Below are positions 1,332 to 59,781 of a stretch of 64,000 nucleotides of DNA, in pieces. The DNA comes from Adineta vaga. Lineage: Eukaryota > Animalia > Rotifera. The notes under the pieces are model-generated. The model had not been told where the DNA came from. It did no database searches and was given only the letters and a program-made list of their open reading frames with translations. Each line of letters begins with the position of its first letter. The stretch's first letter is position 1. The stretch is taken from assembly GCA_021613535.1 (NCBI GenBank), contig CP075496.1, forward strand, positions 310,001-374,000, written 5' to 3'. Both the position numbers and the translations under genes were made by a program.

Positions 1332-4300
1332 TTAAGATATAGAACATTCACACGTATTTAAAAGAATGTCTAGATTACGACCGAAGTAGTTCGAGATGAT
1401 TATATCTTGACAATTATCACCATTAAAATCATGAACAATTAGCTTAGTGTCCGGTTCATTATAATACGTTTCAGGTACAAATATGTTTTGTGCTTTAAAA
1501 ATTCCATTTCCATAACCAACTAACACATTTATGTAATCGGTTCGCGCACTAGGAACGAGTATATCTACATGACCATCATTATTTAAATCACCAATAGCGG
1601 GTGGCGTTGTACTAATAATATCAGTTTCTATGAAAAAATCGACATATGCACTTAAAGTTCCGTTACCATATCCAAACAATACACTAATAGCATTTCTACC
1701 TATACAAATGAAAGCAACGTCTAACCATGTGTCTTCGTTAAAGTCGCCAACAATCATTGAAGTTGGATTATAACCACCTCCAGTAAAAAATGTCTTTACA
1801 GGTTGAAAAGTTCCATTTCCATATCCAAGTAATATGCCAACCTGTTTGCTGTAATAATTGATAAAAGTGATGTCTTTATAGTTATCATTATTAAAATCAC
1901 TAACACTAAGCTTCAATGGCCAACTACTAGGTCCAGCCGAAAATCTTGTATATGTTGCAAAACTTCCATCACCATTGTTAAGAAAAACACCAATAGTATT
2001 AGTTCCATAATCATTGACAGCTATATCTAAGTAATTATCATTATTGAAGTCAGTTAATGTAATATCGTTGAATCTCTTAACGTTTTCTCCCGTTAACCGT
2101 ATTAAAACTCTGAATGTTCCATTGCTGACGAGAACATTTACATAATTTTCATAGCCATTGATAAATGCTATGTCGAGTTGATCATCATTGTTAAAATTAC
2201 CCATCGCGAACGTGACTAAATATATATCTGTCGATAAAAGTGTTGTCTGTGCTCCAAAAGTACCATTACCATTCCCAATGAGTATATTTATACTATGATA
2301 TTCGATAAAAACTAGATCGAGAATACTGTCATTATTGAAATCAGTCACCATTGTGAGACGCGGACCATCGCTCCAATTATCTGTACGTATGGCGCTTTTT
2401 TTAAATGTAAATTGACAAGGTGATGCTTAAATAAAGATTCTCTATCTTTAATTTTATTTACTTTAATTTAAAAGAGAATTTAATTTGAAAAATAAATTTA
2501 TATAAAGATGTCATTATTTTCTATGTCAAACTCGAAAGTTAAAGAATTGAATAACTGAATAGTTAATTTCAATTTTCGAGTTTGATACTACTAAATTACG
2601 AAACATATGAGTATTTTTTGTAATTATCTTACTAAATAGATTCTTGTAAAATTTATTTACTAACTTGTTGTCGTAAAAGTTGACATTGTTGTACTTGCTC
2701 TTGTACTTGTTATTATGATCTCATTCACAGTATTTGTCGTATTCATTGAAAAAACTAGAAGAAAAAAACAATTTTTTCAATGATTTTATCTTCTAATTGA
2801 AATAGAACATTTCTCTTAAAGTTCATACCTGTTGAAACAATTTCATTCTTTTGATATCGAGCAAAATAAATAGAAAATATAATAAGAACCAATACAACAA
2901 ACAAAAACAATAAAATTTTGACAGAACATTGAATTGATGTATAAAAATTGTTTCTAATAAACAGAATTATAGATTATTAATCAAATTAATATAAAGAAGA
3001 CATACTGAGATATAACATTTGTTGATGTAGATTCTAAATGAAAAGTACGATTATGAATAATTGTGTTCATAGGTTCAATTGTCGTTATTTCGATTGTACG
3101 AAAAGGTTGAACAGTATTCACTCGTCTCTTTCGATAATGATATATTTTAGCTAAAATTCGAACTATTTGAGGACAAATCCATTTGAGAATAATTGTAAGA
3201 CCACTTTGAATACCAAGTACAAAAGCTATTGCATAAAGTAAATTAAATTGTTGAATATAAGTATATGAACAAAACAAAGGTAAACATTTTTGGAAATATA
3301 ATGAATAATTAATTGATATGATCCATTCTTCAATAAAAAGTTTATCGATAAGTTCATTAATAGTTGTATTAATTGAGAATCGACTTATTGTTGATGTCGA
3401 AAGAGAAGATGAAGAATTTATAGAATTCATATATTGTTCAATAGAATTAATACATAAAGAATCATAAAAACATTCAAGAGTTGATGCATGAAATGATTCA
3501 CTTGGTGTACATCCTATTTTAAGACCTTTAATTAAAAACATTTCAGAAGAATTTATTTTTATAAAATTTGCTTGACTTGTACAATTTTGATACAATGTAC
3601 AGGAACAATTATTATCATAAATCATATCATATGTATATGCAAAATAATCATCAATTTCATTAAAAGGAGCAATATAATCGAAATTTGTTCCATAAGTTGA
3701 TACAATTCTATTTCCATGATTTATACTTCGAACTAAATCGAAAAGACGAGAGAATATTTTAGGAGCATTGGATTTGCTTTGTTCAATCAATGAATTAATA
3801 CGTGTATGAAAAACTATTTCTGTTTGAAGTTTAGTTGTTATAAATAATGAAGAAAGTAATTGATGAATAGAAGTATTTACTGATTTATTAACAAGTTCAC
3901 ATAATCCAGTTAAATATTGTAAATGAGCTGAGAGAAAACGACGATAATCTTTTAGATCATAAATAGAAAGATTAGAAATAAGATTCATTGTAAGATTATT
4001 TCGCCATTCATTCGAAATAAATGTACTTGAACAAATCTTTTATTAATAGAAAAAGAAAAAGAATTTTATCATTTATAATATTCACTTCTTTTTTTACCTG
4101 ATGTAAACGTGATTGAATTGTGACATAATTATCGTATGTTGATGCAATTAATGAACAAGGACATTCTAAATTATTTCCATAATTCCTTTGAAGATCATTG
4201 TATAAACTAAAAGATGGTTTATTGAAAGTTTTCATCATTGTTTCAGGTTGTATGACACTGTATACAGTGAGAATACCGACACCAATAATTAACAAAATAA

Positions 4301-7300
4301 TATAAAGACGAGTAGCCCATTGACCAAGATGTTTAGCTGAAATTCGATCAATTCTACTTCCAAAACTTCTCAAAGGAAAAATATTTAGATTGATTGCTGT
4401 GATATATAAAAATCTTGCTAATTGTTGTATCATTGTTCTCAATTGATGAAACCAATTCACATGAACTTTGAAAAAAAAGAAAATAGTAAATATAATCTCA
4501 AGGTTAGGTGTGAGTTTTATATTCTCATCTACGTCCATTCTAATCTAATATTAGTCAATATAAACCTGATGAATGAGTATTTGATTGATGTTGTCGTTTG
4601 ATTTTCAACTTGAATAAACGAAAGACAAACTTGACAAGTTGAGGTGTAATTAAACGTAATGAAACAGTAAGACCACCTATCATAGATAATAATGTGATCA
4701 TCACTCCAATAGTATTCTTTGCTCGAATTGTAAAAGAATAAGTACAATAATTAGGTGCACAAAATTCGTAATAACTTTTATATGAAATCGATGTATTCCA
4801 TTTTTCAATCATCATATCTTTAACTATCATTTCAATTGAAGTATTTGGAGTAAAACGATTTAACTTTGGATTATAAATAAGAGGACGAATATCAAATGAT
4901 GATGGATATACTGTAGTTTGAATATAAGCTGATTTTATGTGACTTTTTATAATTGATAAACAATCCGAATTTGAATAAAAACATTCAAGTGTTGAAAGTA
5001 GAAGAGAATCAATAGCAAAACATCCTTGAATAAAACCTGGTACTACATATGCAATATTAAAATTATAACTCTCGTCAGATTTCATATCGACATTATAAAT
5101 AGCGATTGGACTTTGACAATGAGAATTAGTAGCACAGATACAGTTCACAGATGTTGTGTTGATATCACGAGTTCCAGTCAAAGAAAATTTTAACTAAAAA
5201 AAACTTTTCAAACATATGAAATTTCCTAACAAATTCTCCTAAAAAAACAGGGATGGACGGGTTTAAGTAAAAATTTGAACTTTCATATTCACATACTCAT
5301 CGTAACCCTATGGAATAATATTGTTGCATTTTTAGAATTGAAAATTGTCCTAAGTCTATTTTCATTATTCTTTGACAAAAGAAATCAATAGAGTGATATG
5401 AGGTCGTTTTATTATTCATATGAATAACATACCTTTATTGGTTGTTGACCATTTGTTTCGTTTATTATTGTATCTATGATCAAGTTTGTATCGATCATTT
5501 GAACACTTCCTTTTACTCCCATATAAGGTTGATCGACTTGCATAAGAAGACGTATTGTGTTGACAACAAGACTAAAATAGATATTGGTCGATTGAATAAA
5601 TTGATTGAGAGTTACATTTAATTGTGTATCGAATTCATTTTCATTAAGTACATTCGATGTGACGAAGAATTGTATGATAAAATTATTAATAGCATTATCA
5701 ATTGTTTTATTAGCCATTTGACAAAGATCTGATAATAATTGAAATTGTGAGCCAGCTTGATTAAGCCAATCAATAGAAATCACTTGCGTTGAGATAGATG
5801 TCATGATTGCAATCAAAGATTCGCTAATAATATCACTTGAACATACTTGATGAAAGATTGGAGACAATTTAATAAATGTACGATAAGGTATTGCCATTGT
5901 TGAACATGGACAATTGAGTGTATTTGAATACAACATTTGCAAGTCTTTGTAAACGATTAATGATGGATTTGATATTGTTATTGAAGTCGTCTGAGTACTC
6001 AGTGAAGTGAAGAGAAGAAGTACGAGCAATGAGCCTAATGATATATATAAACAAAGAAATGAACGTGTTACCACATACATATCTTACGAGGGAGCTTCCA
6101 TGGGTGACACTTTTCGTTTAAGTATAGTGGTGTGGAAGCAGGATTTTTCGGTGGGTCGAGCGTCAGGTTTAGAAAATGGGTCCCAATTAAAACTTATGGA
6201 CGGATAACATGAATTTTTGCCGATGAGCGATAATCCATTTATAAGAATGCCGTCGTATGCTATGTCAATTCTCATAAAAAAATTTCTATCCGTTCAGCAA
6301 TTATAATGTTTCGAAAACTGCCGTAATGTGCGACGGCATTTTTATAAATGGGTTATCACTCATCATTAAAAATACGATCTCAATAACAACAGAGTTTGGA
6401 GACGAACCATTTTAGACCTTTTATCTAAACACTACTTATAGGCAAAAGATAAGCTCAAACGGAAGATGTCACTTGACGAGATTCCCTCGTTAGATTGTAG
6501 AATTCAATATGGTACGAAAACACTTTATCTCCATTCACATCGTCAAGATGTACAGTGAAAATGATCTTACCAGTTAACAGGATTAAATAGACACGAGTGA
6601 TTATCTTCTGTTGCATGATAACCGCTTCTGTTCGATCGCCGTGATCCTTAAACAAATTCAACTGTTTTGTTTTTTGAGCAAATTTGCGTATATGTGTTGC
6701 ATTATATTCTATAAATCATATAAAAAGTTCAGTACGAGTCTATTTTCATGATACTTAAGAGATACCTGAATTAACTGTAATATTTTTTGAGCAATGTTTT
6801 AATTTCCATGCAATATTAATCAAGAATGGTGCGATCAAACGAAACACAATAATGAGACCACCATAAAGACTAATTAACAGAGCCATTGCATATAATACAT
6901 TAGTTTGATCGGTTGTAGTGTATGTGCAGAACGAACAAGCACATCTATCGAAATATATTGAATAATTCATTTCTGTTGACCATTCTTCAATGAACAGATC
7001 AAGTAAATAATTGTTTAAAGAAATATTTTCTTGTTTTGAAGATAGAACAGAATCGGTCCAGTTCGAATGCATCTACACAAAAAAAGAATATATTATGAAA
7101 TATATGATAAGTAACATAGATACTTGATTAAGAATTGGAAAATAGTCAAATAATAACATAAGACATTTGATATCATACAAACAATTAAGTGTACTTGGAA
7201 GAAGACCTTCAAATGGAGTACAACCTGCAAAGAATCCGTCGATTGTTACAATTGCATTATAGTCAATTAATGTGAAAAAGTATTTCGGAATATCGGGTTT

Positions 7301-8964
7301 ATTGTTTGGTAACGTATAGAAACCAGCTGATTTAATTAGATTTGTACTACCACAAGTTGTAATGGTATTCATGCCAGAAGCATCAGCGGTCTCATTATCA
7401 GCGAACGTCTGAAATCTATTAATAACATAGTTTACTCCATCGCCGACAACACCAACCACTGCATTCGTATTGAGAGCTGAAATTAAGTAATTTGCTCGAG
7501 TTGTAATTTTGATATAACTGAGAAATGAATTAATCTGAGTAGATATACTGTTTCTAGACAGTTTAATAGTAGCATCGACTTCTGATCGAATTTTATCTTC
7601 AGAAAGAAGATAAATACTAACAAACTCGTTATTATCAAGATCAATTTGATTTTGTAAGGTTGCGTCTTGAGAGATTGAACAAAGACTGGCCAAAAGTTGG
7701 AACTATACATAGAAATAAAGTTAATTAAAAAAAAGCTTTTTAACGCAATCTTTACGAAATAAAATAACAGTTCAGTTTCAATGACATATTTTATTAATTC
7801 AAGATGTAATAGGTATAAATCAGATTGTTTATGCGAGTTATGAATATAATCTCATTCTATCACATTCACTTTTCTAAATAAACATAATTATGTCTCAAAA
7901 ACCTTCTCTCTATATTTCTATTGAATATCATGTCATGATCGAATTTATTCCCAATGAAGAACAAAATTTCATCAATAAATAAAATTTTATATTTACCTGA
8001 GAACTTGCTGTTGTTCGAAAATCTGATGCTCCATATGTACTTGCATCTGTTAGATAAAGAGCTTTGATCCATTGTTGGCTAACGAAGAAACTCGAACAAA
8101 CAGGATGAAATGTAATTGCATTTGAAATAAAACTTTTGTAAGACATTGTAATTATTGAACATGGACATGAAAGTGTTTCAGCATGTTGCAAATAAAGTTC
8201 TTTGAAAATCGAAGGAGTTATTTTTGAAACAACAATTGTTCGAGATTGTGGTTTTACCATAGCAATGAAGAAAAGAATATAGAGAGACACTGAAATGAAA
8301 TAAAAATCATTTTGCTTCTTTATTAGTTACGCATTTGTATTTTATAATTCTTCAAAAATGTGCTTAAATCATAATAGTTGTAGTAAAGCTGCGAGATTCT
8401 ATTCAACTGTAATAATGAACTATTGATTTTATTTATCATTATTACTTCCTTTTGTACTTTCCGTCAATCTTCAAAATTCTCTGAGAAAAACATATTTGTA
8501 TTGTAGAAATGTTCAAACTCACTACTATTTCTACATATATAAGATGTTTTCTTAATGATATTAAAACTCAGCTGTTAAATAAACAATATAAATAAATTAA
8601 AAATTATTTTTCGTGTTAATCGTGATAATAGACATAGATAAACAAGTATATCTATCGAATTAATGCTTGTTCTAATAGTTTAATATTAGTTTTAAGCAAA
8701 TTTACGTTCGAGTAAACAGAGATGTTCTGCATCTCTACTTATTGTAAGTCTCAATTATTTTGGGCAAGAATTGTTAACTTCGCTTTTTGACTTACCAACG
8801 AGAAGAAGAACGTACAACCAAGTGGCATATTTTTGATGTTTAAGAATAGTTGGTGGATCTATGAGTTCATCATCATTATCAATATATGTATCATCTTCAG
8901 GAATAAAAAGATTGTAATTGTATATTTGATCATGAAACCAGTGGAATAAATTTCTAAGATTCAT
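1332..8964 (-). CDS. Large multi-exon membrane protein (~1800 aa): three tandem TM-Cys-rich ectodomain-TM modules, then TM, Thr-rich linker and FG-GAP/VCBS beta-propeller
   Basis: About 12 exons joined through GT-AG introns, in frame at the junctions I traced (ORFs 8755-8985, 7928-8290, 7073-7710, 6755-7072, 6455-6661, 5412-6080, 4555-5181, 4008-4538, 2981-3988, small exons ~2830-2953 and ~2666-2754, then 1332-2425). Each module has [RW][LV]YxxLL-TM, LxCPCS, FHQ/PVCSS, GCxxxxxLxxSTLxC, IExW, YxxYFxxCxxxxCTY and GGL-type TM motifs; the C-terminus has DFNxD..DI..LLGxGxGTF repeats. Confidence 0.85.
6222..6364. repeat. Intronic 34-bp inverted repeat (MITE/foldback remnant)
   Basis: gatgagcgataatccatttataagaatgccgtcg vs cgacggcatttttataaatgggttatcactcatc, 3 mismatches; lies in the long intron ~6035-6571. 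Confidence 0.6.
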
Positions 8965-10878: not shown

Positions 10879-12097
10879 TTAGGTTGTTAAGAAAGTTTTT
10901 GCGCTTTTTTGAAAAATATCATACAGAACTATAGAACGTTCTCACAGTTTCGATACTAAGGGTGTAGATAGAGGGTGTGACTATCGTCCGAACGAACGTA
11001 TATCGATCGATATGGATGCACACAAACGCGCAGAAATGAACATCTTTCGTAGAGAGATTCTGGCGCTTTTACTTCATGAATTTGGTTTGGGTCACAAAGT
11101 GACTGAACCAATAAACCAAATATGCAGTACGATGAGGCTAAGTGTGATGTCTATCCGTACGGCGCGATATTGATTTGATAGCTTTCGCAACAGAAAATAT
11201 AAGTTCGTATATCAACGTAGGTCTAAAGTTGATATCGACCTTTTAGAGCAGCTGATCAAACAAGATTCACGCTTAACGACACGGTGCTCAGTAGAGCAAC
11301 TCGAGTGCCTTCATACTACGGTAGAAAGACATTTGAACGCGTTAGGCAAGAGTTAAAAATATGGGGTGTGGATTCCACATGAATTGTCGCTATATTAGCT
11401 CCAACACACGTACAGATTTCATTACATCCCACCGTAATAATCAATGGCTGCGCAATCTCTTTACTGGAGATGAGAAGTGGGTCCTCTATGTAAATCATAC
11501 GCGTCGATGTCAATGCCTTAACAGCGGTCAAACGGGAGTTGCAACGCCTAAAGTGGACTCCCACTCCAAGACGTTGATGTGGAGCGTTCCGCGGAAATCA
11601 GAGGAATGATTGATTGGGATTCTCTTGCTATTGGGTGTATAATCACCACCGCTATTTGCTGTCAACAGTTGAATCGTGTAAAACAACAACTCGAAGGAAA
11701 ACAGGATCGAATTTACTTTCTCCACGACGGTGCGAGCCCCCACATGTAAAAGTTACCTCCCGAAAAATTAATGCCACTGGTTCGAATAACCATTTCCCTT
11801 CCATCTTATTCTTCAGACTTGGCTCTAACAGAATATCACTTCTTTCGGTCTCTCTCAAACTATCTGCTCGGACAGAAGTTCAACAAAGAGAAGGACCTAA
11901 AAGTCAACACCGCCACTTTCTTTGCCCAGAGGTCTGTAGAGTTCCATGAGCGCGGCATCCTTTACCTCCTAGATCGTTGGTGACGAGTCATAGATATCAA
12001 CGGTGCATAAATCGTTGATGGCTGTTTCTCTTAGAAAAGAAAAAAAAAATAAAGAAGAAAATGTCGAAAAAGCGCGAAAACTTTCTTAACAACCTAA
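10879..12097 (+). mobile_element. Full-length but decayed mariner (Tc1/mariner) transposon
   Basis: ~34-bp TIRs ttaggttgttaagaaagtttttgcgctttttt / aaaaagcgcgaaaactttcttaacaacctaa flanked by TA; transposase remnants WIPHEL, TGDEKWVLY, HDGA.PH and YSSDLALTEYHFF lie in several frames with stops. Confidence 0.92.
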
Positions 12098-14094: not shown

Positions 14095-15216
14095 TCATGC
14101 AATATATCCAGCACAATTGCCTTTGCCAAGTTGACAAGCTTCTTTTGATGCATCAGATTGAATACATTTTGCTTGAGATTGATCACACGATACGACAGAA
14201 CCGATACACCATGGTAATAAGGGAAATTTTATACATTGACATGCTGCTTTAAGTGGTGCAGGAAAGGAAATTGAACAACCACCATTTTTATATTCACAAC
14301 TACATTTATTTGGTGATGATAGATTCTTTGTAGAAATAGGAATAGAAGATGAAGGATTAGCCAAAGTTAAACCCATTGAATTCGCTACGTTTTTCAATGC
14401 TGCAACTCGATTTGTCAATATTCCATGAACACCCATGTTAATATAATCTTCCATTGATGAATCCAAATCAACAGTCCATATAATAGTTAAACCATTTTCA
14501 CTTGTTGTTCTACCAGCAATACTCGCTGTAAGAGCAGAATTAAAAACTTTTGGTAAACAACCACTAGTACCAGTTGAATAGATACGATTCGTTGTTAAAC
14601 GAGAAAGCATACTTATAACATCATAATATTCATTACCTTCTTCATCAAATGTAAAAAAATAACGATCTTTATATGCTGAATTCGTTGCTGTTAGAACTGC
14701 TGCTTGAATATAATCATATGAAGCTATTTTGGCCGCTGAGATAAGAACTTTTCCTTGAAAGCCTTTAGCCATTAAATTACTATCTACAAATGGAATAATA
14801 GCTTCACCAGCTTTCTTCAGTCGACTTCCCCATGCTGGATCAACTTTCGAATCAATATACAAAAGAGCAACAGTATTCAATGTTGCAATATATTGAAGAT
14901 GATTTACAGCATCATTGCTACCTGCAGATCCGTCACATTGATCACCATCAAGAGCCTTACAGATATGATCATTGGTCAAAGCACATATACAATCACATGG
15001 AGATCCATGAGAAACAGTAGTAGGATTTCCATCATTGTTAAATCGAATATCAGTTTCAAGTGCATTAGCACCTTGTGATAATGCCCAATCTACGGCTGCT
15101 TTTGTATTTGTCATATGTGCGATAATATAGAATGGATCTTGAGTTTTGGCTGTTTGTACTACGAAGAGAATCGATAATTGTAGTGAAATCACAAGATAAA
15201 ATCTTCGATAATTCAT
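14095..15216 (-). CDS. Secreted sphingomyelinase D / SicTox-like phospholipase D with Cys-rich C-terminal domain
   Basis: Signal peptide; catalytic motifs IAHM, ALETD, HGSPCDC, IDSK, WTVD, GILTN; C-terminal ~70-aa domain with 10 Cys; intronless. Confidence 0.9.
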   Translation of the reverse strand: MNYRRFYLVISLQLSILFVVQTAKTQDPFYIIAHMTNTKAAVDWALSQGANALETDIRFNNDGNPTTVSHGSPCDCICALTNDHICKALDGDQCDGSAGSNDAVNHLQYIATLNTVALLYIDSKVDPAWGSRLKKAGEAIIPFVDSNLMAKGFQGKVLISAAKIASYDYIQAAVLTATNSAYKDRYFFTFDEEGNEYYDVISMLSRLTTNRIYSTGTSGCLPKVFNSALTASIAGRTTSENGLTIIWTVDLDSSMEDYINMGVHGILTNRVAALKNVANSMGLTLANPSSSIPISTKNLSSPNKCSCEYKNGGCSISFPAPLKAACQCIKFPLLPWCIGSVVSCDQSQAKCIQSDASKEACQLGKGNCAGYIA

Positions 15217-16254
15217 TATAATGGATTAATTAAATTTTAAACGAGAAATATAAGAAAAATATATTTCCAAGCTGAATAATCAAATTGATCTTACTTGAAT
15301 GAGTGAATGAAGGATATATATATATACAATTATATTAAACGACGACAATTATCCCACGAAAAACAAAATTATTCATCGTCAACTAATCTGCGTTTGTATT
15401 GTTAATTATAGAGATAAATGACGTTGATATTTTCATTTATTTTTAGTCATATAGGTGAATACGTATAAAAATTGTTAATAAAAAAAGGAAAATTTTGTAG
15501 AATATTACATACAGGATTAATTTATATACTTTTACTATTATTATCATCATTAAATATAAAGTTTAAAAAAATCATATCAACGTTGTAAGAAAAGACTTTA
15601 TTTTATTATTCTATTTATAGCACGAAATCGACCTTTGCATTGAACACATCAAATCGTCTTTTAGATTTTCATAATATTTCTTCTAGTTATTGTGTGGGTT
15701 CTTATTCATGACGTCATCTCATAAATATTTCATTGGATCTTCAGTTTTATGTCTAAAATGACGTGTAGGTAAGAACGAAAAAAAGAAGCGTATTTTGAAT
15801 ACAAAATCTTGTGATAGTTATTTACTAAATTCCTCATGATTGAGGGTGTGGATGTTTAAGAAAAGAAAAATACTCTCACTTCTCTTCAATGATAAAATTA
15901 GAAAGAAGATCATTCAATAGTTAATTATAGAAACAAGAAAAAATGCTTCATTTTTTGATCTATTTTCTTTCTTTTGAATAATAATTAATTACTGGAAAGC
16001 AGGAAGAACAATATGAATCTTTTTCTAATGATCTATTCTAAAAATAAATTCTTCTTTTCTCCCTGTCGTTCATTGATTCATTGAATGTTCTTAAATTACA
16101 TGTCTGTTGTCACTTTCTATCTGTTAATTTTCATGAAAATCTTTTCTCTTATCATCCCTTCAGTGCTTGTCTTAGGTATTTACGTCATTGACAAATTTAA
16201 AAATAACCTATGATTTCTTTCACATTTATTTAAAATTTCCCCGCATTATATCAA

Positions 16255-17214
16255 ATGTCGACATCAGAATTTCTCTACTTTTTTCAACAAAATCTATTTA
16301 AATATGGTGGTCCTATACTCATAGCTATTGGTACACTAAGTTCCATAATCAATCTAATAGTATTTACACAAAAAACTCTACGAAAAAATCCATGTACAAT
16401 ATGTTTAATCATTGTTAATAGTATTAATCTTATTTATTTTTACGTCGGTCTTCTTTTTACAGTACTTGCATCTGGTTATGGTATTGATCCAAGTGCAAAT
16501 AACATAATCTTTTGTCGATTTCGTTATTATATAGCTTTCCTTCTTGCATGTTGGGAATCATCTTGTCTCATTTTAGCTTCTATTGATCGAACATTAGTCA
16601 CTTCACCAAATGCTTCAACAAGAAAACTTAGTACACGTCGATTGATTGTTATAACTATCATTGTTATATGTTTATTTTGGGCAATTTTTCATGTTCACGC
16701 ATTAATTCATATGCAAATTCTTCAATATGGACCTGATTATTTCATTTGTTATTATGAATCAGGTTCATATACAACATTTGTTACTTATTATTCACTTTTA
16801 ATCAATGGTCTATTTCCACCTATTCTCATGCTCATTTTTGGATATTGGACAGTGAGAAATATTCGTGAAATTCGTCGTGCAACACGGCATTCTGGCACAA
16901 TTAATTCAATTGTTGTTGTTGCAATTAGTAGACCACAAATACTTCAATCAAAAGATCAACAATTGGTTCGAATATTACTTGTAGAACTTATCACTTATAT
17001 TCTATACAAATGTCCAATTACAATCTGCTATATTTATCAAGAAATTACACATCATATTGAAAAAACTGTAGAACAACAATTGATTGAACAATATATTTTA
17101 TCATTAACATTTTTCATATATTTTATCGAGAATAGTATTACTTGTTATGCAAATATTTTGGTATCAAAAACTTTTCGTTCAGAACTAAAACGTATTTTAT
17201 TCAATGTTCGTTAA
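16255..17214 (+). CDS. Rhodopsin-class 7TM GPCR (intronless)
   Basis: Seven hydrophobic segments, LRKNPC in ICL1, CRFRYY in TM3, ASIDR (DRY-like), SKTFR after TM7. Confidence 0.9.
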   Translation: MSTSEFLYFFQQNLFKYGGPILIAIGTLSSIINLIVFTQKTLRKNPCTICLIIVNSINLIYFYVGLLFTVLASGYGIDPSANNIIFCRFRYYIAFLLACWESSCLILASIDRTLVTSPNASTRKLSTRRLIVITIIVICLFWAIFHVHALIHMQILQYGPDYFICYYESGSYTTFVTYYSLLINGLFPPILMLIFGYWTVRNIREIRRATRHSGTINSIVVVAISRPQILQSKDQQLVRILLVELITYILYKCPITICYIYQEITHHIEKTVEQQLIEQYILSLTFFIYFIENSITCYANILVSKTFRSELKRILFNVR

Positions 17215-19556: not shown

Positions 19557-22520
19557 GTATTAGTTTACCTATTGTACCGTGATATAGCAGCATTTCATTT
19601 CCGTTTGCTATTGCTGAGTCTTTTTGAATGAATTTTTTAGCTTCTTCATATATTGCTTCCAATGCAGTATTCTTGATTTGTTCAACAGACACAACCTGCA
19701 CAGAATCTGGCGCATAACATGTTCGCATGCGTTGTTCTATTTGACGGTAAATATTGTCTGTTTTTGATAACGCTGTCAGTTCAGCTTTTGCTGGAGCAAC
19801 TACACACGGTGGTACAGGTATAAAAGTTTGAGTAAGTTGTGTCCATCCGCGAGTTATCATCTTCTTTGCTCTTTCGCCAACAAGTTTTCCAGCTGGTTCA
19901 TCATTAATTTCCGCCAACAAACAATAAGAACGTTTTTTAATATTATTCACAATTTTTTCTAGAGTTATGTCATATGGAGACTGAGTAATATCAATGCGCA
20001 TTCCCAAATGTCTTGTGTGATCTTTTTCCACATATAAATTATTTACATCAAAATCAATGCGTTCATAATGAATTGTGCCTACATGTGGTGTGATCAAGTC
20101 AACTATGAAAGGACCTGTCTTGGTATTTTGATCGATTACTAATACATATCGCCATTGATCTCTATGAACGCGAACTGCTATCTGTAGTTTTCCCAGTTCA
20201 GTGACGATTTCATTAACGTCAGACAAGCCATGCGTAGGCAAATAACAATCTAAATCAGCTGGAACTATTTCCGGATGTAAATGTGGTATGGATCCGTTGT
20301 ATACAATCCATTGATCCATAGGCACATTCTTAGGGTACGCTGTGTAACCTCCAACAACCCAGTCCCTTATAAATCCGCCATAAAGTTTACAATCAAATTT
20401 GCAAATCAACAACCAGGCAACAGTGAGCATTCTCTCTTCTCTACTGCCTTTCTGAATTTGTACTTGGTTGAACGGCATTTGTTTGCTATTAGCGATTTGA
20501 GTAATACGTCTTTCGATGTCTTCATAAATATTTTTTGATGCGTGTCCTGTTTTTGATGTCGGGCTAGGTACAAGTATTCTTGGTGGAAGAGCTAAAATTA
20601 AGAACAGTGTACAAATTACAAAACACTAGCAAAACGAGTTTTCATAGGAAAACATTAAAATATAGTGCTTTCTAAATAAATAAAAAATAGCAATGCAATT
20701 ATTCGATAAAGAAACAACATGGGTTCAAATATGTCAAAAATGAATAGCCTATTTGGGTTATCGGAATTTCAGCAATAAAACTTTCGCCAATCGGACATTC
20801 GCACATGGCGAAAGTCTGTACTGCGACATGCATGCTACCCTCAAGTCCACTGTCTATAGATATAGACTACAATTTTCTTGAGAATGTCGATGTGAAAATT
20901 TGTGCGTATTATTGTAACCATATATCTTTTTTTATATTCTCATTCATATCCACACTGTTGAAAGTTGAACCTATTGTTGCAATACGTTTTGCACTATTTC
21001 AAAATATTTTCTTAGGATTATTTTTACCTGCACTAATCTGAATAGCTTCGGCTTTGATGTTGAGAGATTTCTTTTTCCAATTGAGACTTGCATCGAGGTC
21101 ACCTTTCATCGCAGCCATCTGACCCAAGTCATCGTATAAATCGACAAGCAGATGATCATTTGGTGAAAGTTCATCTATCATACGCTGATAGTACTTTTCG
21201 GCTAGATCAAATTTACCCATTTTCCATAAGACTCTTCCAAATAATTGAAGTGTAGCTTTCTTATTTCCATAATCATTTTTCATGTGCTCAATGACTTCTT
21301 TTAAATCATTCTCTTGATCACTGCATAATGTTACTTGAATGTTCCAAATGCCGTTGCTTCCTTGACGAATTTTGTTAAGACGAAAAATCGAACCGAACAT
21401 GAACAACACTTCAAATTCATGTTTGAATGGACTATGAGAGGATACATTAGCAAATGGCTTGCTTGCGACATTATTTGGATTTGCCTCAATCTCAAACAAG
21501 ACTCGTTCTAGATCATGTGGAATACTACTGCCAGTCGAAAATAACAAAGCTTGTTTAGGATCGACGCTTGTAGATAGAAAAGAGTTCATCGATATGAGTT
21601 GATTTACTGACTGCTGTAAAGTTTTCAGTTCATCTTTCGACACCAACTGACCTCGATAGACGCGAATGGTATGCGAACACTGATTTTCTTTCAACTGTTG
21701 ATAAATATCACGGCAGAATGATCGAAGAAGAAAAAGTATATGGATGTCCTGTACACGAAAAGCTTTGTTTAATATTTTATACAGGAAACATTCACGAGTA
21801 TACCATTGTAATGCCTTGGTAGGCGAATAACTCTGCTCATATTCGGCTAATATGCTTAACTCCAAATCGTTTCCTTTATACTGAGTTTTACAAAGATCAA
21901 TCAACTCTTTTTTATCTTTTTCAGTAACCTTCAATCTGAGCAAGACATCCATGAGCACTTGCCAATGAACGAACTGACCATTTAGACTGACTGCTGACTT
22001 GTCTTTTTTTGTTTTATCAAAGAAAAAGATTTCGAACGACAGAAAATTTGCCAATTTCAGTCGATTCTGTTGATCAGCTGTTACTTGGGAAACAAGAACA
22101 CTTAGCTCAGTTATAACTGCTTTTACCTGAAAAAAAGTATGAAAAATTGATATCATAGATTATATGTCAAACTTTGTAGAACTTTTTAGCCCAAGTATTA
22201 TGCAAAGTTTCGTCCATACAATACACATAAATATCCGAAATTTGTGGAATATGATGAATGCGCGGTATTTCATGCTGACCCAAACTACCACTTATAATAA
22301 GTACCAGATAATAGCCTGGAGTGACCTGCTTGATATAGTTGCGAAACTCATCTGGATCATCGAATGTCTTGAGATAATTGATGGCTGCACGAAGTTTTTT
22401 CTGTGTCTCTTGATTATCCTTGGTTTTATAAACATTCAAATCTAACCAAATAAGACTAAATGCTTCAAGATTTTTGTCAGCAGTGCCAAATCCAGTTTTT
22501 GAGACAACTGACTTAGCCAT
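19400..22520 (-). CDS. Multidomain fusion: REC-like domain - mono-ADP-ribosyltransferase - TPR - class II (CCA/poly(A)-polymerase-like) nucleotidyltransferase - truncated PARP catalytic domain
   Basis: Exon 22173-22520 (LIWLD...IISGSLG...IYVYC); exon ~21028-22126 (ART motifs YRG, FLSTS, EFE, then TPRs); a phase-1 junction joins it in frame to the exon starting ~20591, which runs into ORF 19510-20478 (GGFIRD, DLD, RIDFDVNNL; then VEQIKN, LYHGT); exon ~19400-19465 (GFDKKNYRQGNWG). No downstream GxYFA exon found. Confidence 0.75.
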
Positions 22521-31203: not shown

Positions 31204-32141
31204 GTCTTTGTTGTCTAAGAATAAATACGATTTTCTTTCGCTTTTTAATTATTTTAACAAATGATCAGTTTCTTTGTATTTTGTCAATCTTGTAATTTCT
31301 ATAAAGAAATGTACTTTTTTTTATGGGCGATTTCATATTAAATAAGAAAAGAAAAACAAATAAAAGAATTGTTTTTCATTCTTTTCAATTGAAATCAACA
31401 ATATGACCAATTCATATGGATTCCTATGATCGAGATATATAATCTCCTAGAGAAACAATAGACGATAGTTATAGAACAAGAAGATTATTTTTGTTTTACT
31501 ACTTATACAATATATTAATTAAAAATAAATATCAATATACATTTCATAGAAAACTTTTTGAAATAAATAGAATATATAATAAGAAATATAAAATATTTTG
31601 ATTTATGAATTACAATGATATAAAGAATCTTAATAGATCAAATAAAAAGAAAATTTTCATTGGTAATACATTCAACAATGAAAATCATCGTTAAACATCG
31701 ACAATCAATATGAATATTTCTTTGTTCACTTTTTAATTTAGGAAATACTAATGATTGATTCTCTCGAAATCACTAACTATTAATGGAACAATGTTATTTT
31801 CATTCTAGACTAAGACAAAGATGATATGAGTGAAATTTCATCCAAGTGCTTTGTCTTATTGATTCTCGTTTTATTTTCTTTTTCATAAAATATTAGAATA
31901 TCTATATATTTTAAGGTTGTTTATCGAATGTTTATTGTCGATTTTACGCAGTTAATTCACGATGATATTCGTCACATGGACATCGAAGAGAAACGAGAAT
32001 GTATATAATTATTCATACCTTTAGAAAAAATATATTTCTGCATCGATAAACACTATTACATATATATGACATGACAAAAAAAGAAGCCCTTATTCATAAA
32101 TTTGTTTATTATCGTATTTACCTTTTAATTTTTAACTACAA

Positions 32142-35100
32142 ATGTTAACAAAAAATACTTATGTAGAAATTGATGAATCACAAGAACGATCAAGTGATAA
32201 TGAAAATATCAATGAAAGAAATGAATTACCATCCAATTTATTAAACAAAATAGATTCTAAATTAAATGAAGAAAATAATTTCGAAAATATAGAAATGGTT
32301 GGAATTGCAAGACGATCAATCGATATAGTGGATAAAGTAATATTAAAAAATGATCGTTTAGTAGAAAATGTTTTTGAAAAATTGAAATTAACAAATTTGA
32401 ACTTATATAATAATATCGAAAGTGAAATTAGTCCAATTAAAGGATATGCTGATGAACCATTATTACCACTTTCAAAAGCATGTATTCCATTGAAAGATAT
32501 TCTTTATGATTTATCATCTTATGTTGACTTAGCATTACGAGAAACACCTGAACAACCACCAGATGAATTGACTATTGATGAAAGTGCTGCTATTCGTCTC
32601 TATACAATGGAATGGGATGCACCACATCGAAGTCTTTATTCATTACTTAATTTCAATCTAAAAACAGCTAATCATAAAGAACTTTTACCATTTTTCAAGT
32701 ATCTTAAATTATTCTTAAGTGCTCTAACTAAATTACCATGTGTTCCATCATTAACTGTTTGGCGTGGTGTTACGAAAGATTTAACTTCAGATTTTCCACC
32801 AGGTACTCGAGTAACATGGTGGTCATTTTCTTCATGTACAACTGAAATGACTGTATTAGAAAATAATATGTATTTGGGTCGTGAAGGTGATCGAACACTT
32901 TTCTCTGTTGAAGCTATCAATGGTCGATGTATACGTGATCATTCACATTTTGTTACTGAAGATGAAATTCTTCTTCTTCCTGGTACTCATATGATTGTTC
33001 AATCACAACTTAGTCCAGCATCAAATCTTTATATTATTCATTTGAAACAAGTTAAACCTGATATAGAATTATTAGAATTACCATTCGAAGGTATTTTTCA
33101 AAATTATATTCAGTAATTATTTTGATTATCTTGATTATATTTTTAGGTGCACATCTTTTTCCAAAAGAAATGTAAGTCAATTAGTTTTTATATTGTTTAT
33201 TTAATACAAAAAAAAAATTGTCTATTATTTTCTAAGACATCCTTGGTATTGGAAGAAAAGATTTACAATTCCAATCGTTTTTTTAATTATTTTATTTATT
33301 GGTGGTATTATTCTTGGTGCTGTTCTTGGAACACGAAAATCATCTCCTATGAATAGTAAAATTTGTTGTTAGATAGATCTTCTATTATATTCAACTGAAT
33401 ATTATTTATTTTAGTAATATCATGTACTAATCCATTGGAATCATTTGATTATATTAAAGTTGGACAATATCCATCTTCGATCGTATTAGGTCATTTTAGA
33501 AACAATAGTTATCTTGATGCAGCAATAACAATTGCTAATGAAAATGCTGTGATTGTACTTCTAGGTGAACCTACTGAAATTCTTCGTACTTCAAAGATTA
33601 CGACTGGCGAACAACCAATGTTTATTATAGCGACTGATTTTAATAATGATACAATAATAGATATAGCAATTGTTAACAATGGTGATGATACTGTTATTGT
33701 ATTATTAGGTGTAGGAAATGGACTTTTTCAAGATAAAAAAGTCTATCGAGTAGATACTTCACCATCTTGTCTTATATCAGCTGATTTTAATAATGACAGC
33801 AAATTGGATTTAGCCATAGTGAGTCAAGACAGTAATATTGTTAATGTGCTACTTGGTGATGGACAGGGAGCCTTTCAAAGTTCATTTAATAATTCAGTTG
33901 GTTATTTTCCATCATTTATAATATCCGTTGATTTTAATCATGATAACAAATTAGATTTGGTAGTTAGCAATACTTTTGATAATACTATTAGTGTATTGAT
34001 TGGTTATGGTGATGGAAATTTCCAAACGCACATGACATATTCTACTGGCTTGTATCCAACATGTTTGGTATCAGCTGATTTTAATAATGATAATAATTTA
34101 GATATAGCAGTAACTAATAGTAAAAATAATACAGTCAGTATTTTACTTGGCATAGGAAACGGAAGTTTTCATAGTCATCTCGAATATGTAACGGGTTCGT
34201 ATCCTTTGTCTATTGGATCAGGTGATTTTGATAATGATAAAAATACAGATTTGGCAATAACCAATAGTGAAGAAAATACCATTAGTGTCTTATTCGGTTA
34301 TGGAAATGGTACATTTAAAGATCAAATTAAATATGGAACTGGTAGCTATCCTGTTTATTTGATGGTCGATGATTTCAACGACGATGGTAGCACAGATTTA
34401 GCAGTACTTAATAATGAGGACAATACTGCTAGTATGTTTTTTGGTCTAGGCAATGGTACCTTGAAGTTTATACAATCGTTTAGTACTGGTAATTCTCCAA
34501 AATCATTCGCTGTCGCTGATTATAATAATGACAAAAAATTAGATTTTGCAGTAGTTGAACAAACTGATAATACCGTTAGTGTATTTCTTGGCGAAGGACG
34601 TGGAAATTTTCAAATTGCGCTCAAATATACTACGGAAAAATATCCATCATCTATTATCTCCGCCGATTTCGATAATGATAATAAACAGGATTTAGTCATT
34701 ACTAATAGTGAAGTAGATACTGTTAGTATACTTTACGGAGTTGGTGATGGATTTTTTCGATCTCCCATAAGCGTTACTGTTGGTAGTTTTCCAACTTCTG
34801 TAACATCGTTTGATCTTAATAAAGATGGATACATAGATTTAGCTGTAGCAAACAAAGGCGATAATACCATTCGGATATTTTTTAATACGGCCAATCAAAC
34901 GTTTACGATGTTTTTAAATTATACAATTGGTAATTGGCCATCTTCTATCATATCAGCTGATTTTAATCAAGATGGAAATATAGATTTAGCAGTGACTAGT
35001 AGAGATGATAATATTGTTAGTGTAATGCTTAATAATGGTAATGGTATTTTTCTTACTTCAGTTAATTATACAGTTGGTAAATCACCATCATGTGTTCTAT

Positions 35101-35489
35101 CAATAGATGTTAATAAAGACACATATGATGATTTAATAGTTACTAATTATGGTCATAATACTATTAGTATATTACTTAACGATCGAAATGGAACATTTTC
35201 TAATAGAAATACTTTTACAGTTGGTAGATATCCATCTTCTGTAGTAGCATCTGATTTTAATAACGATCAATATACGGATTTAGCAGTTGCTAACAGTGGT
35301 AGTAATAGCGTAAGTTTATTGTTAGGTAATGGTGATGGTACATTTCAATCTCAAATTAAATATACTACTGGAATCTTTCCAACTTCTATTAAAACAGGCG
35401 ATTTAAATAACGACCAAAGACCAGATCTTATTGTAACAAATGGCAAATCGAACGATGCATATATTTTTTTGAACAAATGTAAAAACTAA
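32142..35489 (+). CDS. Receptor-like type II membrane protein: N-terminal arginine-type mono-ADP-ribosyltransferase - TM - ~13 FG-GAP/VCBS repeats
   Basis: Exons 32142-33090, 33147-33171, 33237-33355 and 33415-35489 join in frame (phases 1, 2, 1); ART triad WRG / FSSCT / EDE; TM WKKRF-TIPIVFLIILFIGGIILGAVLG; FG-GAP repeats DFNxDxxxDLAV. Confidence 0.88.
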
Positions 35490-37995: not shown

Positions 37996-39048
37996 TTAAG
38001 GAGTATCTAGAAAATGACGAATAACATTCATAGTTTTCTCGTGTTCTTCGACGTGTGGCATATGACTACTTTCATTGAATAAAACCTGTTGGACACTATT
38101 GTTGATCCGTTCACGATAGGGTATTTGAGTACGAGGTGTTGCTTCATCATACCGACCAGAATAAGTAAGAGTCGGTACTTCGATAAGATGTAATCGATCG
38201 ATAATACTCCAATTTTTCAATGAACCAGTAACATAAAATTCAGAAGGACCCCACATTGTTAGATACACCGTTGGATCAAGCATATATTGTGCGACACTAG
38301 CTTTGCATTCTGCTGGCAAGGGATCGACTCGACAAACATATTGATTATTAAAAATACGCATGGCTTCCTGATATTCATCACTCGTTGTTGTGTCCGCTTG
38401 TTCATGTTTTAATAATGCTTGTTGCACTTCAGGAGGGAGTTGATCTCTCAATAAATTGACCTCTGTTACTCCAAGAGGTAGATCTGATGGACTACTAGCC
38501 AGAATAAGACGTCGCAAACCAGATGGTTGTCGTACTGCATATTCACAAGCCAACATACCACCCCATGATTGACCAAGTAAATCATAACAAGAAGAAATGT
38601 TTAGATATGAAAGAAGATTGTCCAACTCTTCTAAGAAGAGTGAAATTGTCCAATATTCTGGTGTAACTTCTGGTAAATGTGTGGATAATCCACATCCTAT
38701 TTGATCATAATGAATCACTGCTCTTTTATCTGAAGCTAAAGCTTTAAAACTGTCCGTATAATTATGTGCCATGCCTGGTCCTCCATGAAGAATAACTAAA
38801 GGTGGAACATCATCATTTAAGTTGCCTGTAATACGGTACCAAGTTTTATAATTTCGAAATGGAGCATATCCTTCAACCTAAATACGAAAAAAATATTAAG
38901 AAAAAAACAATCAATTCTAATATTCTATGAGTTTATTCTTTTTCTTCTTCTTCTTCTTGTATCAATTCAATATGTCTATTTTACATGATACTAAAAATCG
39001 ATAGATAATAATGTAAGAAACATTTCCATATACCTTAGAGATGATCAT
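37996..39048 (-). CDS. pip: Proline iminopeptidase / proline-specific peptidase (alpha/beta hydrolase, S33), bacterial-type, with one intron
   Basis: Exon 39034-39048 (MIISK) + exon 37996-38877; HGGPG, YDQIGCG, GQSWGG nucleophile, GRYDE, SSHMPH. Confidence 0.88.
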
Positions 39049-39782
39049 TGATATATAAATATCAATGATAGAATTGATTTACTTCTCTTCACAAAAAACG
39101 CATCAAGTATTATTTTTGCATACGAGTCGACCGACGAGTAGGACCGTTATTTTGTTCTGTGTTCTTCTTCTTCTTGCTTTTATGCACACACGTTATCGCA
39201 ACTATTCGACTTTACATACTAAAGCTGTACACGCCATAGAATAATAATGCACTCTTTTTTTATTCTGGAACAAAGGTTAACGGATAACAAAGGTCATGAT
39301 GCACTACAATAAACGCGAAAAAATGAAATAAGCTAAGACTGGCGACATAATCGCGTTACGTCGCGTATTCCTCATCAGGAAACACGATATCTATACAGAT
39401 TATTCATTTCTTTCTTACCAATAACAATCTCGAGAGAGAGAGAGAGTACCTTTTATACGATGAATAATATTTGCAAAAATTGAGAGATTTGAATAATTTT
39501 GAGGTAGTATCCAATGAATAATGATATTCCGATAGATGGATATATCGTCAGAACATCTAGACTATGATAAGTTTATGTTTTTAATTTCCAAAATCGTATT
39601 TTTCAAGTCCATCCTACTCTCACTTGCTGCTTATACAGTCTACTGATAAATCGTATTTTCGTCGTTCTCGTCTATTGTTTACATTTTTTTCCTTTCTTTC
39701 TCCACTTTAACCACGTGTTAAAGTATTTCGAGGAATTTTTTTTTAATTATTCCTCATTTTTTGGAATTTAAAAGCCATTCCT

Positions 39783-41502
39783 ATGGCTTCTAATTCTAAT
39801 TCTAAATTTAATCATCTTAATGATGGTAAAATTTGTGAACAATCTGATTGTAATCATGGTTTTTGTCGTGAATCTCGTAAAAAGTCTTCCACAATATCTA
39901 AAAATGTTTCAAATGTTAATTTGGATAATGTTCATGTTGCTGGTGTCGATTTTGAATCACTTGGTGCTAATCCTGATCTTGGTTTAAATTCTTCTTCTAT
40001 TGATTATCATCTTATTAATTCTTCAAGTTCCTCGGTACGTCGTCCACTTTCAGTAGATGTCGCCGATGGTTTTCTTACTGTTTCTTATAAGAAACATTCA
40101 AGACGTGATTCGAAAGAAATTTCTGTGCACGGAAATTCTGTTAATGCTGGTGTTTCAGCTGTTGGTAATGATGTTAATATTATTGGTGATAATTTATCCA
40201 ATGGTCCTATTGTTTCTCAACAGTTTATAATTACTAATGAATCAACTCGTTATGCTCAATCCCGTTATCCTTTTGCTCCATTTATTCTTCTTTTTAAATC
40301 TGATAAATTTACGATGAACCAAATCAAAGAAGAATTAATTAAGCATTGTAAAACGGTACATCAATTTGATATTGATATATTAAATTGTCGATTATTTAGT
40401 TCAAATGCTTCTGGTGGTAATTATAATGTTCATTTTTATGTTAAAGATGTTCTTTCCTTTTCATTTTTATTAAAAACTGATCATTGGCCTAATGTTCTAG
40501 GTGATGAATCTTTTTTGATTCAATCATTTCCTTCAATTCCACCTCAATTAAGTTTACTGATGAAAAACGTTGATTTGAATATTAACTTCGATGAATTTAC
40601 TGACATGATTAAAAATAAATTTCCGGATGTTAAAAATGTTATTAGATTAAAAAATAAAATGCAAAATGATATTAAATTGGTCAAATTAGAATTAACTTGT
40701 GCTTCTACTCGGGATAAAATTTTGAATGATCGTCGTATTCTTATAAATCATTTGTCTTATGATGTTGTAGAATACTTAGCACCTGCTAATGTTCTCATTT
40801 GTTCAAAATGTATGGCGATTGGGCATTTTAAGAAACAGTGTACTCAAACTAAAGAAACTTGTAGGACATGTGGTGAACAGGTGGATAATTTAAAAAATCA
40901 TACATGTTCTCAAGTAGAAAAATGTATTCATTGTCATTCTAATCACAAGTCAACCTCGCTTAAATGTCCTGTGGTGAAAGCATTTCGTGCGGAATTAACA
41001 AAGAAATTACTAAATACAAATAATGTTACTGCACCTGCTAGTTATGCAGGTGTTTTATTACAAAATCATACTAATGTTCCATCACAGCATCCAAATGTTA
41101 ATGCAAATAATTCTATGTTAAAGAAACTCGATGATTTAATGAATACTATGACAGAAATGAAGAAGCAGTTGGATAATTTACAAGATAAACAAAGTACAAT
41201 TGAGCAAGTCTTATTAGCTAAACAACAAGGTGATGACCTTATCATGTTAAATGTGAATGAAATTTCTTCCGCTCAAAAAGATTTCAAGAAGGATTTGGTT
41301 CATCATAGTGTTTTTATTGATCGTCATGAAAATATGCTTATTAAATTATTATTACCAATGTTTCAAGATTTATTCTTATTTTTATCTTCTTTAAATCAAG
41401 ATAAAAAAAGGAAACACACTTGATGCTGATCTGAAGTGTAAATTGGATCGTTATGGTATACAAGTGAAAAAAGCTATTGAAGGTAAACAATTCACAAACT
41501 AA
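39783..41502 (+). CDS. LINE ORF1 (gag-like, three Cys/His zinc knuckles, coiled coil); one +1 frameshift in an A-run at ~41403-41409
   Basis: CSKCMAIGHFKKQC, CRTCG..H.C, CIHCHSNH..C; removing one A extends the ORF to TAA at 41500-41502. Confidence 0.88.
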
Positions 41503-49794: not shown

Positions 49795-50799
49795 TTAGAT
49801 ATGTTCTACTCTTCGTCTTACGTTAATCGAATGAGCGCCAGTATTTATCTGTTCTGGTTCTAGTCGTTTTATGGTTTTCAAGACCATTTGTTTGATTTCC
49901 TGTCGAAAGGGTTTAGATATCGCCAAGTAAATGTAGAAAGTAATACAATAATTTAAATAAAATAAGATAATAAGTGCCAAAAACGACATGAATGATTCGA
50001 TTGCAATACGATCTGCACTTTTATTCAACAGATTACTTGTCAAAATGGAATATAACGTACTAATTGGATATAAAGTTGTAAGAAGTATACCGAGAATAAT
50101 TTCAGTTAAGATGAGTTTGATCAAAGTAATATCATGTCTAGTTAGAATATTCTGTGGTATGCTGTCAGTTGCTGGCATAGGTTGTATACGAACACGAACC
50201 AATTTCAAATTCTTTACAATTAAGAAACTGAAAAATATTTGAGAAATTGGTAAAATAACTCCAAAAATACACACTTGATAGATGCTGAAGAAAAATCCGT
50301 ATGTTCCACTCGGCAAGCATCGATTATTCAGAATAGTCTGATTGATCGGTAAATGTATTGAAATGAGCAGACCAAAGAGAATAAATCCACCAATCATTTT
50401 AAGTGCAAATTTAGGTTTACTAAAAGCACGTATACCTGCTCTAGGCGATGTTAATGCAAAACGATCGACACATCCCAATAAAATCATACATTTATAAAGT
50501 AGTGATGAAGTTTGGAGAATATAACCTCGAAAACGGCAAAGAAAAAGAGATTGAATAAATGGATCTGGTGGTTGATAAAGAGCATACATATTACTACCAA
50601 TTCCCCAGTTAATACCAATAATACTAAATACAGCAGCAGCAAGTAAATACAATGAACACGGATTTCGTCGATGTTTTTTTCGACAAAAGACGACAATGAT
50701 GAAGAAATTACCGATGTTACCCAATGTCAAAGAAACAGGAAATCCATAACGAATAATCGTTTGTTGTGCAAATACAAGTGAAGAAGAAAGAGAAGACAT
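49795..50799 (-). CDS. Rhodopsin-class GPCR, copy A
   Basis: 7 TM; GNxxN, NPCSLYL, CRFR, VDRF, SKPFR; ATG at 50799. Confidence 0.9.
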   Translation of the reverse strand: MSSLSSSLVFAQQTIIRYGFPVSLTLGNIGNFFIIVVFCRKKHRRNPCSLYLLAAAVFSIIGINWGIGSNMYALYQPPDPFIQSLFLCRFRGYILQTSSLLYKCMILLGCVDRFALTSPRAGIRAFSKPKFALKMIGGFILFGLLISIHLPINQTILNNRCLPSGTYGFFFSIYQVCIFGVILPISQIFFSFLIVKNLKLVRVRIQPMPATDSIPQNILTRHDITLIKLILTEIILGILLTTLYPISTLYSILTSNLLNKSADRIAIESFMSFLALIILFYLNYCITFYIYLAISKPFRQEIKQMVLKTIKRLEPEQINTGAHSINVRRRVEHI

Positions 50800-58943: not shown

Positions 58944-59781
58944 AGAAAGATAGATTGTCCGGTGACGGCCTGCTTCTGACCCACACTTACACTCTCAAGA
59001 TTAATGTACATGTTTTATACCCAATTTTATCCACTCACATTTTATTTACCACAAAAAGAGGAGAAACTTATTTATGAATTTCGACTTGAAATTTTGAACA
59101 GGTATAAATCTTAACAGCAGTTGTTTGTTGTAAAAGTGTCGGCTCTTTTCTTTCACTCTACACTGATATAAAAACATCGCGTTTATTTATCTATTGAGGT
59201 AATATGAAGTGTTTTTTAACTGTAGCTGTATCACAGTACAGGAAGAACGAAAAAAGCTGAAACTTTCACAATAAACTGTTCTTGTGAGCACTTTCATTCG
59301 TATAATTTCAAGTCAAAATTCATAAAAAGGTTTCCCTACCTTTCTTGAGAATCATCACGGTATTCTGTATAAAAATTTTCCACTTTTCTGATATACACCT
59401 CCTCTGGAGGTCTAAGAAGGTTTCAAACCTCTATTTGGAACGAATATACCAAATAATTTCTAAGTCTATAGGTTTTGAGGGTGGGCATTTGGTTGTGGGT
59501 AAACAAAAGATACTCAAAACATCCTCAACATAGAAGAAAATAATTTTTTGCTTAAAAAATCGAATTGTCAATAATAAATGATGTTTCGACCGTTTTTCAT
59601 TCGATAGAAAAACTTTTTCAACGCGTAGAAACGTGTTTTTTTTCTCATTGCTTATCTAACTGGGTACATACAATATGAGGTTGGAAAGCAATCCTTTATC
59701 GATTTTTCGGTGAATTTTAGGAGCTCTATTTTGAGATAGAAGTGGCAAACTCATACATTTGGTGTCTCAAGAGAATAGTGC

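Follow-up and report, generated by a model that had tools for sequence, protein, structure and literature searches.

The window, a stretch of 64,000 nucleotides from the bdelloid rotifer Adineta vaga (contig CP075496.1, positions 310,001 to 374,000), carries on its minus strand the intron-rich gene I4U23_017226, identified by a protein search. Its product belongs to a large bdelloid family, with a three-unit architecture as the rule, whose homologous units of two transmembrane (TM) helices and a large ectodomain are joined in one chain and, in models of relatives, are predicted to come together with pseudo-three-fold symmetry. Both the architecture and the negative outcome of the family tests set these proteins apart as a new pseudo-trimeric membrane family, and a remote relative may exist beyond the structure libraries searched. 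The models and conservation patterns suggest a ligand-sensing ion channel that is analogous to DEG/ENaC, P2X or PAC channels without being a member of any of them, an interpretation to which we give about even chances. Of the original prediction, which saw three concatenated DEG/ENaC-like modules with an attached propeller, the concatemer stands and the DEG/ENaC identity is unsupported.

Three homologous units in one polypeptide

Along the protein, three TM-ectodomain-TM units are followed by a seventh TM helix, a Ser/Thr-rich stalk and a seven-repeat FG-GAP propeller. The homology of the three units, claimed in the original prediction, is borne out by pairwise identities of 25–27% (E 2e-32 to 8e-41) and by local alignment scores of 404–450, far above shuffle means of 44–47 (maximum 74 in 200 shuffles); units and propeller, when compared, are unrelated to each other. 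Hydropathy places TM helices at residues 50–68, 406–424, 489–507, 860–878, 959–977, 1294–1312 and 1385–1403, with a further weak peak at 743–761 within an ectodomain. The features of the gene are as follows (window coordinates; ORF, open reading frame).

1332..8964, minus strand: whole gene, 12-exon model, 1,807 amino acids
8964-8796, 8289-7997, 7702-7124, 7072-6766, 6708-6571 and 6034-5433, minus strand: exons 1-6
5193-4566, 4465-4098, 4036-3006, 2953-2829, 2754-2665 and 2425-1332, minus strand: exons 7-12
6776..8946, minus strand: unit 1 (residues about 7-446), with an LNxF motif, TM1 (residues 50-68) split by intron 1, a Cys-rich ectodomain and TM2 at 6898-6842
4585..6691, minus strand: unit 2 (residues about 456-899), with TM3 (residues 489-507) split by intron 5, an ectodomain and TM4 at 4704-4648
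3116..4418, minus strand: unit 3 (residues about 922-1335), with TM5 at 4307-4251, an ectodomain and TM6 at 3241-3185
2981..3005, minus strand: first part of intron 9, which when retained up to the stop at 2981 yields the six-TM form of the NCBI model
2829..2953, minus strand: exon 10, seventh TM helix (residues 1385-1403, at 2916-2860), placed by hydropathy and by relatives with unit 3 and TM7 in one ORF
2665..2754, minus strand: exon 11, Ser/Thr-rich stalk, with similar stalks in relatives
1332..2425, minus strand: exon 12, seven FG-GAP repeats, a predicted seven-bladed and probably extracellular propeller

The motifs proposed for each unit were recovered in part: CPCS, CSS and GC...STLxC occur in all three, and an exact copy of YxxYFxxCxxxxCTY is confined to unit 1; unit 2 reads YY, and unit 3 CSY. 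At the second TM helix of the units (hereafter TM2, the first being TM1) the strings LISLYGGL, LLSMIGGL and VLGIQSGL were found as claimed.

Predicted fold and three-fold assembly

The proteins modelled with AlphaFold2 are relatives. Unit 3 of one of them, folded alone, gave a confident model (predicted local distance difference test, pLDDT, 89.7; predicted template modelling score, pTM, 0.74). From TM1 to TM2 its chain runs through short strands, a 31-residue and a 37-residue helix, a small region of Cys-rich strands and one last strand. The whole three-unit relative P0310 reached a pLDDT of 85.8 and a pTM of 0.79, against 0.74 for the single unit, which suggests a defined arrangement of the units.

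The three-fold assembly is likewise predicted in relatives. Three copies of residues 60–392 of P0264 docked with a score of 0.86, against 0.00 for the highest of 3 controls; the runs shared at least 92% of their contacts, and partner pLDDT was no lower than 81. The complex has complementary faces with self-contacts at positions 207, 216 and 217, as in a cyclic trimer, and its contacts are made by the long helices, which form a central three-helix bundle. In calibration the docking tool reached its mark for 21/30 solved pairs and 0/23 single chains (17/29 and 0/30 for eukaryotes). Axial positions are hydrophobic in 76–100% of units, the window's own included, and coevolution recovered three disulfide-like pairs.

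Tests of DEG/ENaC, P2X and PAC membership

Passages of PMC10148893 describe DEG/ENaC channels as trimeric, each subunit having two TM helices and a large ectodomain, which in ASIC has a β-sheet palm and ball; these passages, and others in PMC7308080, give the HG motif before TM1 and the GAS belt in TM2 as highly conserved across DEG/ENaC. Two TM helices around a large ectodomain were found in each unit, by hydropathy and in the models, and trimeric assembly is predicted in relatives. It could thus be argued that the proteins are highly diverged true DEG/ENaC (or P2X or PAC) channels with three fused subunits, a proposal favoured by this topology with its Cys-rich ectodomain, by the predicted trimer, by an LLSxxGG-like start of TM2 and by a β-strand beside each TM helix. 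The sequence motifs speak against it. HG was found in 3/288 units and in 0/3 of the window protein. GxS was found in 0/288 units at the expected offset in TM2, in 3/288 within 16 columns after GG and in 0/3 units of the window protein, as the original prediction had already remarked in calling the filter not evident, and TM2 ends early, at R/K-x3-P.

Profile searches agree: no Pfam match to ASC (PF00858) or P2X was obtained for 8 pieces of the window protein (E ≤ 10) or for 15 full-length proteins (E ≤ 1), and ASC was not among the 25 of 77 families shown for 104 relatives. The confident model is dominated by the helices of 31 and 37 residues that make the trimer contacts, a long-helix core that looks different from the β-sheet palm and ball of ASIC. 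As for PAC, structure 7ji3 aligned to the single-unit model over 69 residues with a VIA Z of 5.6 and a root-mean-square deviation of 4.9, a match as short as those of many generic, unrelated helical hairpins and level with them. We regard membership of these families as very improbable.

Wider fold searches of the PDB and of viral structures gave no match at the thresholds applied. For the single-unit model, 0/31 Foldseek PDB rows and 0/135 BFVD rows reached E ≤ 0.001, and the wide VIA search gave 0/48,161 chains at Z ≥ 8 (best Z 6.8 over 82 residues; best in a second look, 3.9); for the three-unit model the counts were 0/90 Foldseek rows and a best VIA Z of 7.4 over 72 residues. No ASIC, ENaC or P2X chain was among the fold-search rows shown, which does not exclude them. 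Sequence-profile matches in the PDB to HCN1 (E 0.011, over a TM stretch), SidC and TMEM9 (E ≥ 0.4) were rejected as chance. In the ESM Atlas, rotifer clusters lay at 0.94–0.97 and the nearest named clusters were those of ciliate PF27811 Y80K_N at 0.77–0.78 (43–45% of members), an unconfirmed lead, and a GTDB pattern scan confirmed 0/26 candidate stretches. No description of the family came up in the literature searches; supplements of genome papers may carry it as an orthogroup.

A channel, a receptor or a remodelling protein

Across 288 units, conservation peaks in TM2 and is lowest in the distal loops. Small residues occupy three TM2 positions in 98–100% of units, and a small/polar stripe runs along the helix (at 100 degrees, p about 0.02; profile columns 391, 395, 398 and 399). 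A conserved membrane core beneath a variable distal surface leads us to read the assembly as a probable ligand-gated channel with side entry. In the proposed mechanism, each unit would contribute the second of its long ectodomain helices to the axis, where the three would meet through a hydrophobic heptad followed by an NxLxS motif, and the long helices of each unit would pack on those of the neighbouring unit, both as predicted in relatives. An outside cue, perhaps a glycan or microbial product, would be bound by the variable distal ectodomain or by the optional TM7-anchored propeller, and the movement may be passed to the disulfide-clamped membrane-proximal strands, opening a path lined by the T-x3-S/G-x2-G-G faces of three TM2 helices. 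Given the hydrophobic upper axis, the entry of ions would be lateral. With so many paralogues in the family, fusing three subunits could ensure that an asymmetric trimer always has them in the same order.

A number of points weigh against this interpretation and the assembly on which it builds. The folded proteins are from A. ricciae and A. steineri and are not the window protein itself; docking was run with three copies alone and with TM1 left out, and the P0264 complex (residues 60–392) named no confident TM2 contacts. The calibration was made on two copies, and of 7 eukaryotic proteins for which no relative had been solved earlier only 1 scored high enough. The coevolving pairs give no support to the predicted interface. 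Conserved charged or filter residues are lacking in TM2 (27/288 units have K or R at one position and 16 at another), and stripes of small-x3-small residues are also typical of plain helix packing.

The same evidence can be accommodated by a non-conducting pseudo-trimeric receptor, adhesion or pattern-recognition protein, in which the small residues of TM2 would only pack the bundle and signals would be relayed by two conserved motifs on the cytoplasmic side, LNxF and TRxY. The trimer evidence fits it equally, and the hydrophobic upper axis, the lack of filter residues, the swappable tails (FG-GAP, NHL, another repeat or none) and the weak propeller match to the lectin PVL are all in keeping with it, as are passages of PMC3846280 that link expanded FG-GAP and NHL families, in general terms, to defence and chemosensing. 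Against it, the cytoplasmic parts are short and hold no signalling domain, it is TM2 with its nearly invariant small residues that is most conserved, and the known trimers that combine two TM helices per subunit with a large ectodomain are channels (P2X, PAC and, in passages of PMC10148893, DEG/ENaC). Such a receptor fits nearly as well as a channel, and we give it clearly less than even chances.

A third possibility, to which the central three-helix bundle lends some weight, is that the trimer remodels membranes in the manner of a fusogen or transports solutes, and that mobile elements may have spread it. Among the annotations, a copy in Philodina roseola carries the label 'telomere-associated protein', and two A. 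steineri records are auto-named 'Envelope protein'. Every unit is anchored at both ends, with no free hydrophobic fusion segment standing out, the gene described here is interrupted by 11 introns and seems to evolve under purifying selection, and the env-like ORFs of bdelloid retroelements described in parts of PMC5408684 are of other kinds, all of which makes this explanation improbable.

If the proteins are channels, as we prefer, they would form a new ion-channel family, a natural single-chain version of a trimeric two-TM design that laboratories usually build artificially, and a very large bdelloid gene family, so far unannotated, would gain a function, as a candidate for chemical or microbe sensing. 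It is tempting to go further, to a trimeric two-TM ion channel of a fourth kind, independent of the others and with a helical ectodomain not described before, a single-chain pseudo-trimer, units repeatedly re-copied, a very large sensory or immune repertoire and swappable propellers; this fuller proposal we hold tentatively, at somewhat less than even chances. Even if non-conducting, the family offers a confidently modelled ectodomain without a match in the PDB or viral-structure libraries searched.

Family size, the count of three and apparent renewal of the units

The first protein search returned 275 longer relatives, and 120/120 of those listed are from Adineta or Rotaria. A profile search of 1.84 billion representatives, which stand for clusters at 50% identity, matched 3,627 clusters at E ≤ 0.001, of which 1,436 reached E ≤ 1e-30. 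The named matches among those listed are all bdelloid (Adineta, Rotaria, Didymodactylos and Philodina), a range drawn from the best 120–150 matches of each search.

The original prediction would have been damaged by paralogues with variable repeat numbers. Three units were found in 202/229 counted proteins, two in 21, one in 6 and four in 0, with 108/120 three-unit proteins in the first set, 94/109 in the second, whose search admitted any length, and no four-unit protein in either. Most one- and two-unit proteins begin part-way into a unit. At loci L001, L007 and L008, all three units lie in one intronless ORF of 1,235–1,266 codons, so that the natural concatemer, as originally proposed, is no artefact of gene prediction.

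In another subfamily, the ends of unit-sized ORFs were sorted into 54 with a splice-donor-like signature and 28 terminal ones, a split that agrees with three units per gene (p 0.91) better than with two (p 0.005) or four (p 0.07) and by which these ORFs fit the exons of three-exon genes. A set of 102 unit-sized ORFs had the appearance of stand-alone single-unit genes; their ends, judged on the ORFs themselves, agree with exons of three-unit genes, and true single-unit genes may nevertheless exist. The rule of three is qualified by P0336, P0345 and P0347, whose two units are nearly complete and which may come from genuine two-unit genes, and by the ORF-end sorting, which is heuristic, dropped 13 named gene models and 7 unclear rows, and looks mis-sorted in a few rows.

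In a tree of 120 units, the nearest neighbour was at the same position for 102 and within the same protein for 13. Among 14 proteins, themselves picked after this first tree, a circumstance that tempers the result, all three units formed their own clade in 4/14 (Shimodaira–Hasegawa-like approximate likelihood ratio test 95–100), and single clades for positions 1, 2 or 3 were rejected (approximately unbiased test, p ≤ 5e-10). These own-protein clades imply that units were re-copied or homogenised several times, with the count still three; the units of the window protein's own subfamily are position-specific. The units of P0264 are 59–66% identical to one another and at most 46% identical to those of any other protein, with TM1 and adjacent segments 93–100% and the distal part 45% identical between units. 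The three-unit member P0296 (Philodina roseola, ARX11414.1), the copy with the telomere label, also has homogenised units. If true, such repeated renewal of a count of three would imply selection on stoichiometry.

The seventh TM helix, stalk and propeller

Exon 12 matches Pfam FG-GAP_3 with E 1.3e-38 (131.8 bits against a cut-off of 26.9; 7 motif copies), and the propeller weakly resembles the fungal lectin PVL (E 4e-4), a hint of glycan binding. Tails vary in the family, with FG-GAP in most long forms, NHL in P0054 and another repeat in P0239, and are absent from many forms of 1,200–1,300 amino acids, which end right after TM6. The propeller, originally seen as a possible sensing or gating part of the channel, is therefore dispensable for the core, and the TM7-stalk-propeller segment, by sequence comparison, is an optional module. 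By eye, L008 (9844-11719, plus strand) shows, after its intronless three-unit ORF, a TM-plus-Ser/Thr-stalk ORF and then an ORF like the P0239 tail; judging from this locus, some six-TM forms may have unannotated tails.

Gene model, splicing and allelic variation

All introns of the 12-exon model are GT-AG, and its frame is open with zero internal stops. Residues 4–1376 are 99.8% identical to the NCBI model, which differs in starting in an upstream exon and in reading through intron 9, so that it ends without TM7 and propeller. Both of these, which the original prediction attached to the protein, are present; they lie at 2953-1332, outside the interval 2981..8964 that it gave, and are joined only if intron 9 is spliced. 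We prefer the long form of 1,807 amino acids because it is colinear end to end with relatives of 1,740–1,824 amino acids (42–45%) and because unit 3 and TM7 share one unbroken ORF in metagenome-ORF relatives (e.g. P0136, P0150 and P0178). Splicing of intron 9 is inferred from relatives and allele patterns; four runs guessed to be RNA gave zero splice joints and did not confirm it.

Allelic insertions and deletions fall outside exons in 5/5 listed cases, and 12/26 exonic single-nucleotide polymorphisms (SNPs) are synonymous against an expected share of 0.21 (p 0.004; counts from 40 of 89 SNP rows of one study, possibly the source of the assembly itself). Inverted-repeat elements with arms of 47–65 nt lie at 289-651, 666-836 and 6213-6373, the last inside intron 5, and are probably small non-autonomous transposons.

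Other features of the window

A second long FG-GAP-repeat ORF of 696 amino acids was seen by eye at 33399-35489 (plus strand). At 14095-15225 (minus), a 376-residue ORF with a signal-like start resembles a sphingomyelinase D/phospholipase D-type enzyme. Single-exon seven-TM receptor-like ORFs lie at 49795-50865 (minus), 54945-56015 (minus) and 16234-17214 (plus), the first two being a near-identical duplicate pair. An intronless α/β-hydrolase at 37996-38877 (minus), possibly a foreign gene, resembles a bacterial proline iminopeptidase. The region 39747-44502 (plus) is a putative long interspersed nuclear element (LINE)-like element with gag-like, endonuclease-like and reverse-transcriptase-like ORFs in several broken frames, 10913-11983 (plus), upstream of the gene, is a putative fragmented mariner-like transposase remnant, and the ORFs at 20999-22159 (minus), 32136-33116 (plus) and 59779-60840 (plus) resemble ADP-ribosyltransferase-like domains.

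Comparison with known systems

DEG/ENaC/ASIC channels, which carry an amiloride-sensitive cation current, share with the proteins described here two TM helices, a large disulfide-rich ectodomain, short cytoplasmic ends, a trimer (here predicted) and a GG near the start of TM2. They differ in that our proteins have no HG, GAS belt or Pfam match, that the predicted ectodomain has two long helices as its scaffold and as the core of the trimer, that three subunits share one chain, and that there is an optional TM7 with propeller. P2X, with a β-rich ectodomain and an inter-subunit ATP site, and PAC/TMEM206 are channels formed by trimers of two-TM subunits whose ectodomains differ from each other; they share this trimeric plan, which is predicted here in a single chain without a Pfam match.

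The tail resembles seven-bladed FG-GAP propellers (integrin-α-like and the fungal lectin PVL) in its seven repeats and its match to the latter; here the propeller stands on a Ser/Thr stalk behind a seventh TM helix, is lost or replaced in many relatives, and its sugar binding is only putative. A broader analogy is with the pseudo-oligomeric Nav and Cav channels, in which the unit of a homo-oligomer is repeated in one chain and has diverged according to position. Those channels consist of four repeats, each with six TM helices and an unrelated fold (TM-score ≤ 0.07 in the Foldseek rows); in the bdelloid proteins the repetition has apparently been renewed several times.

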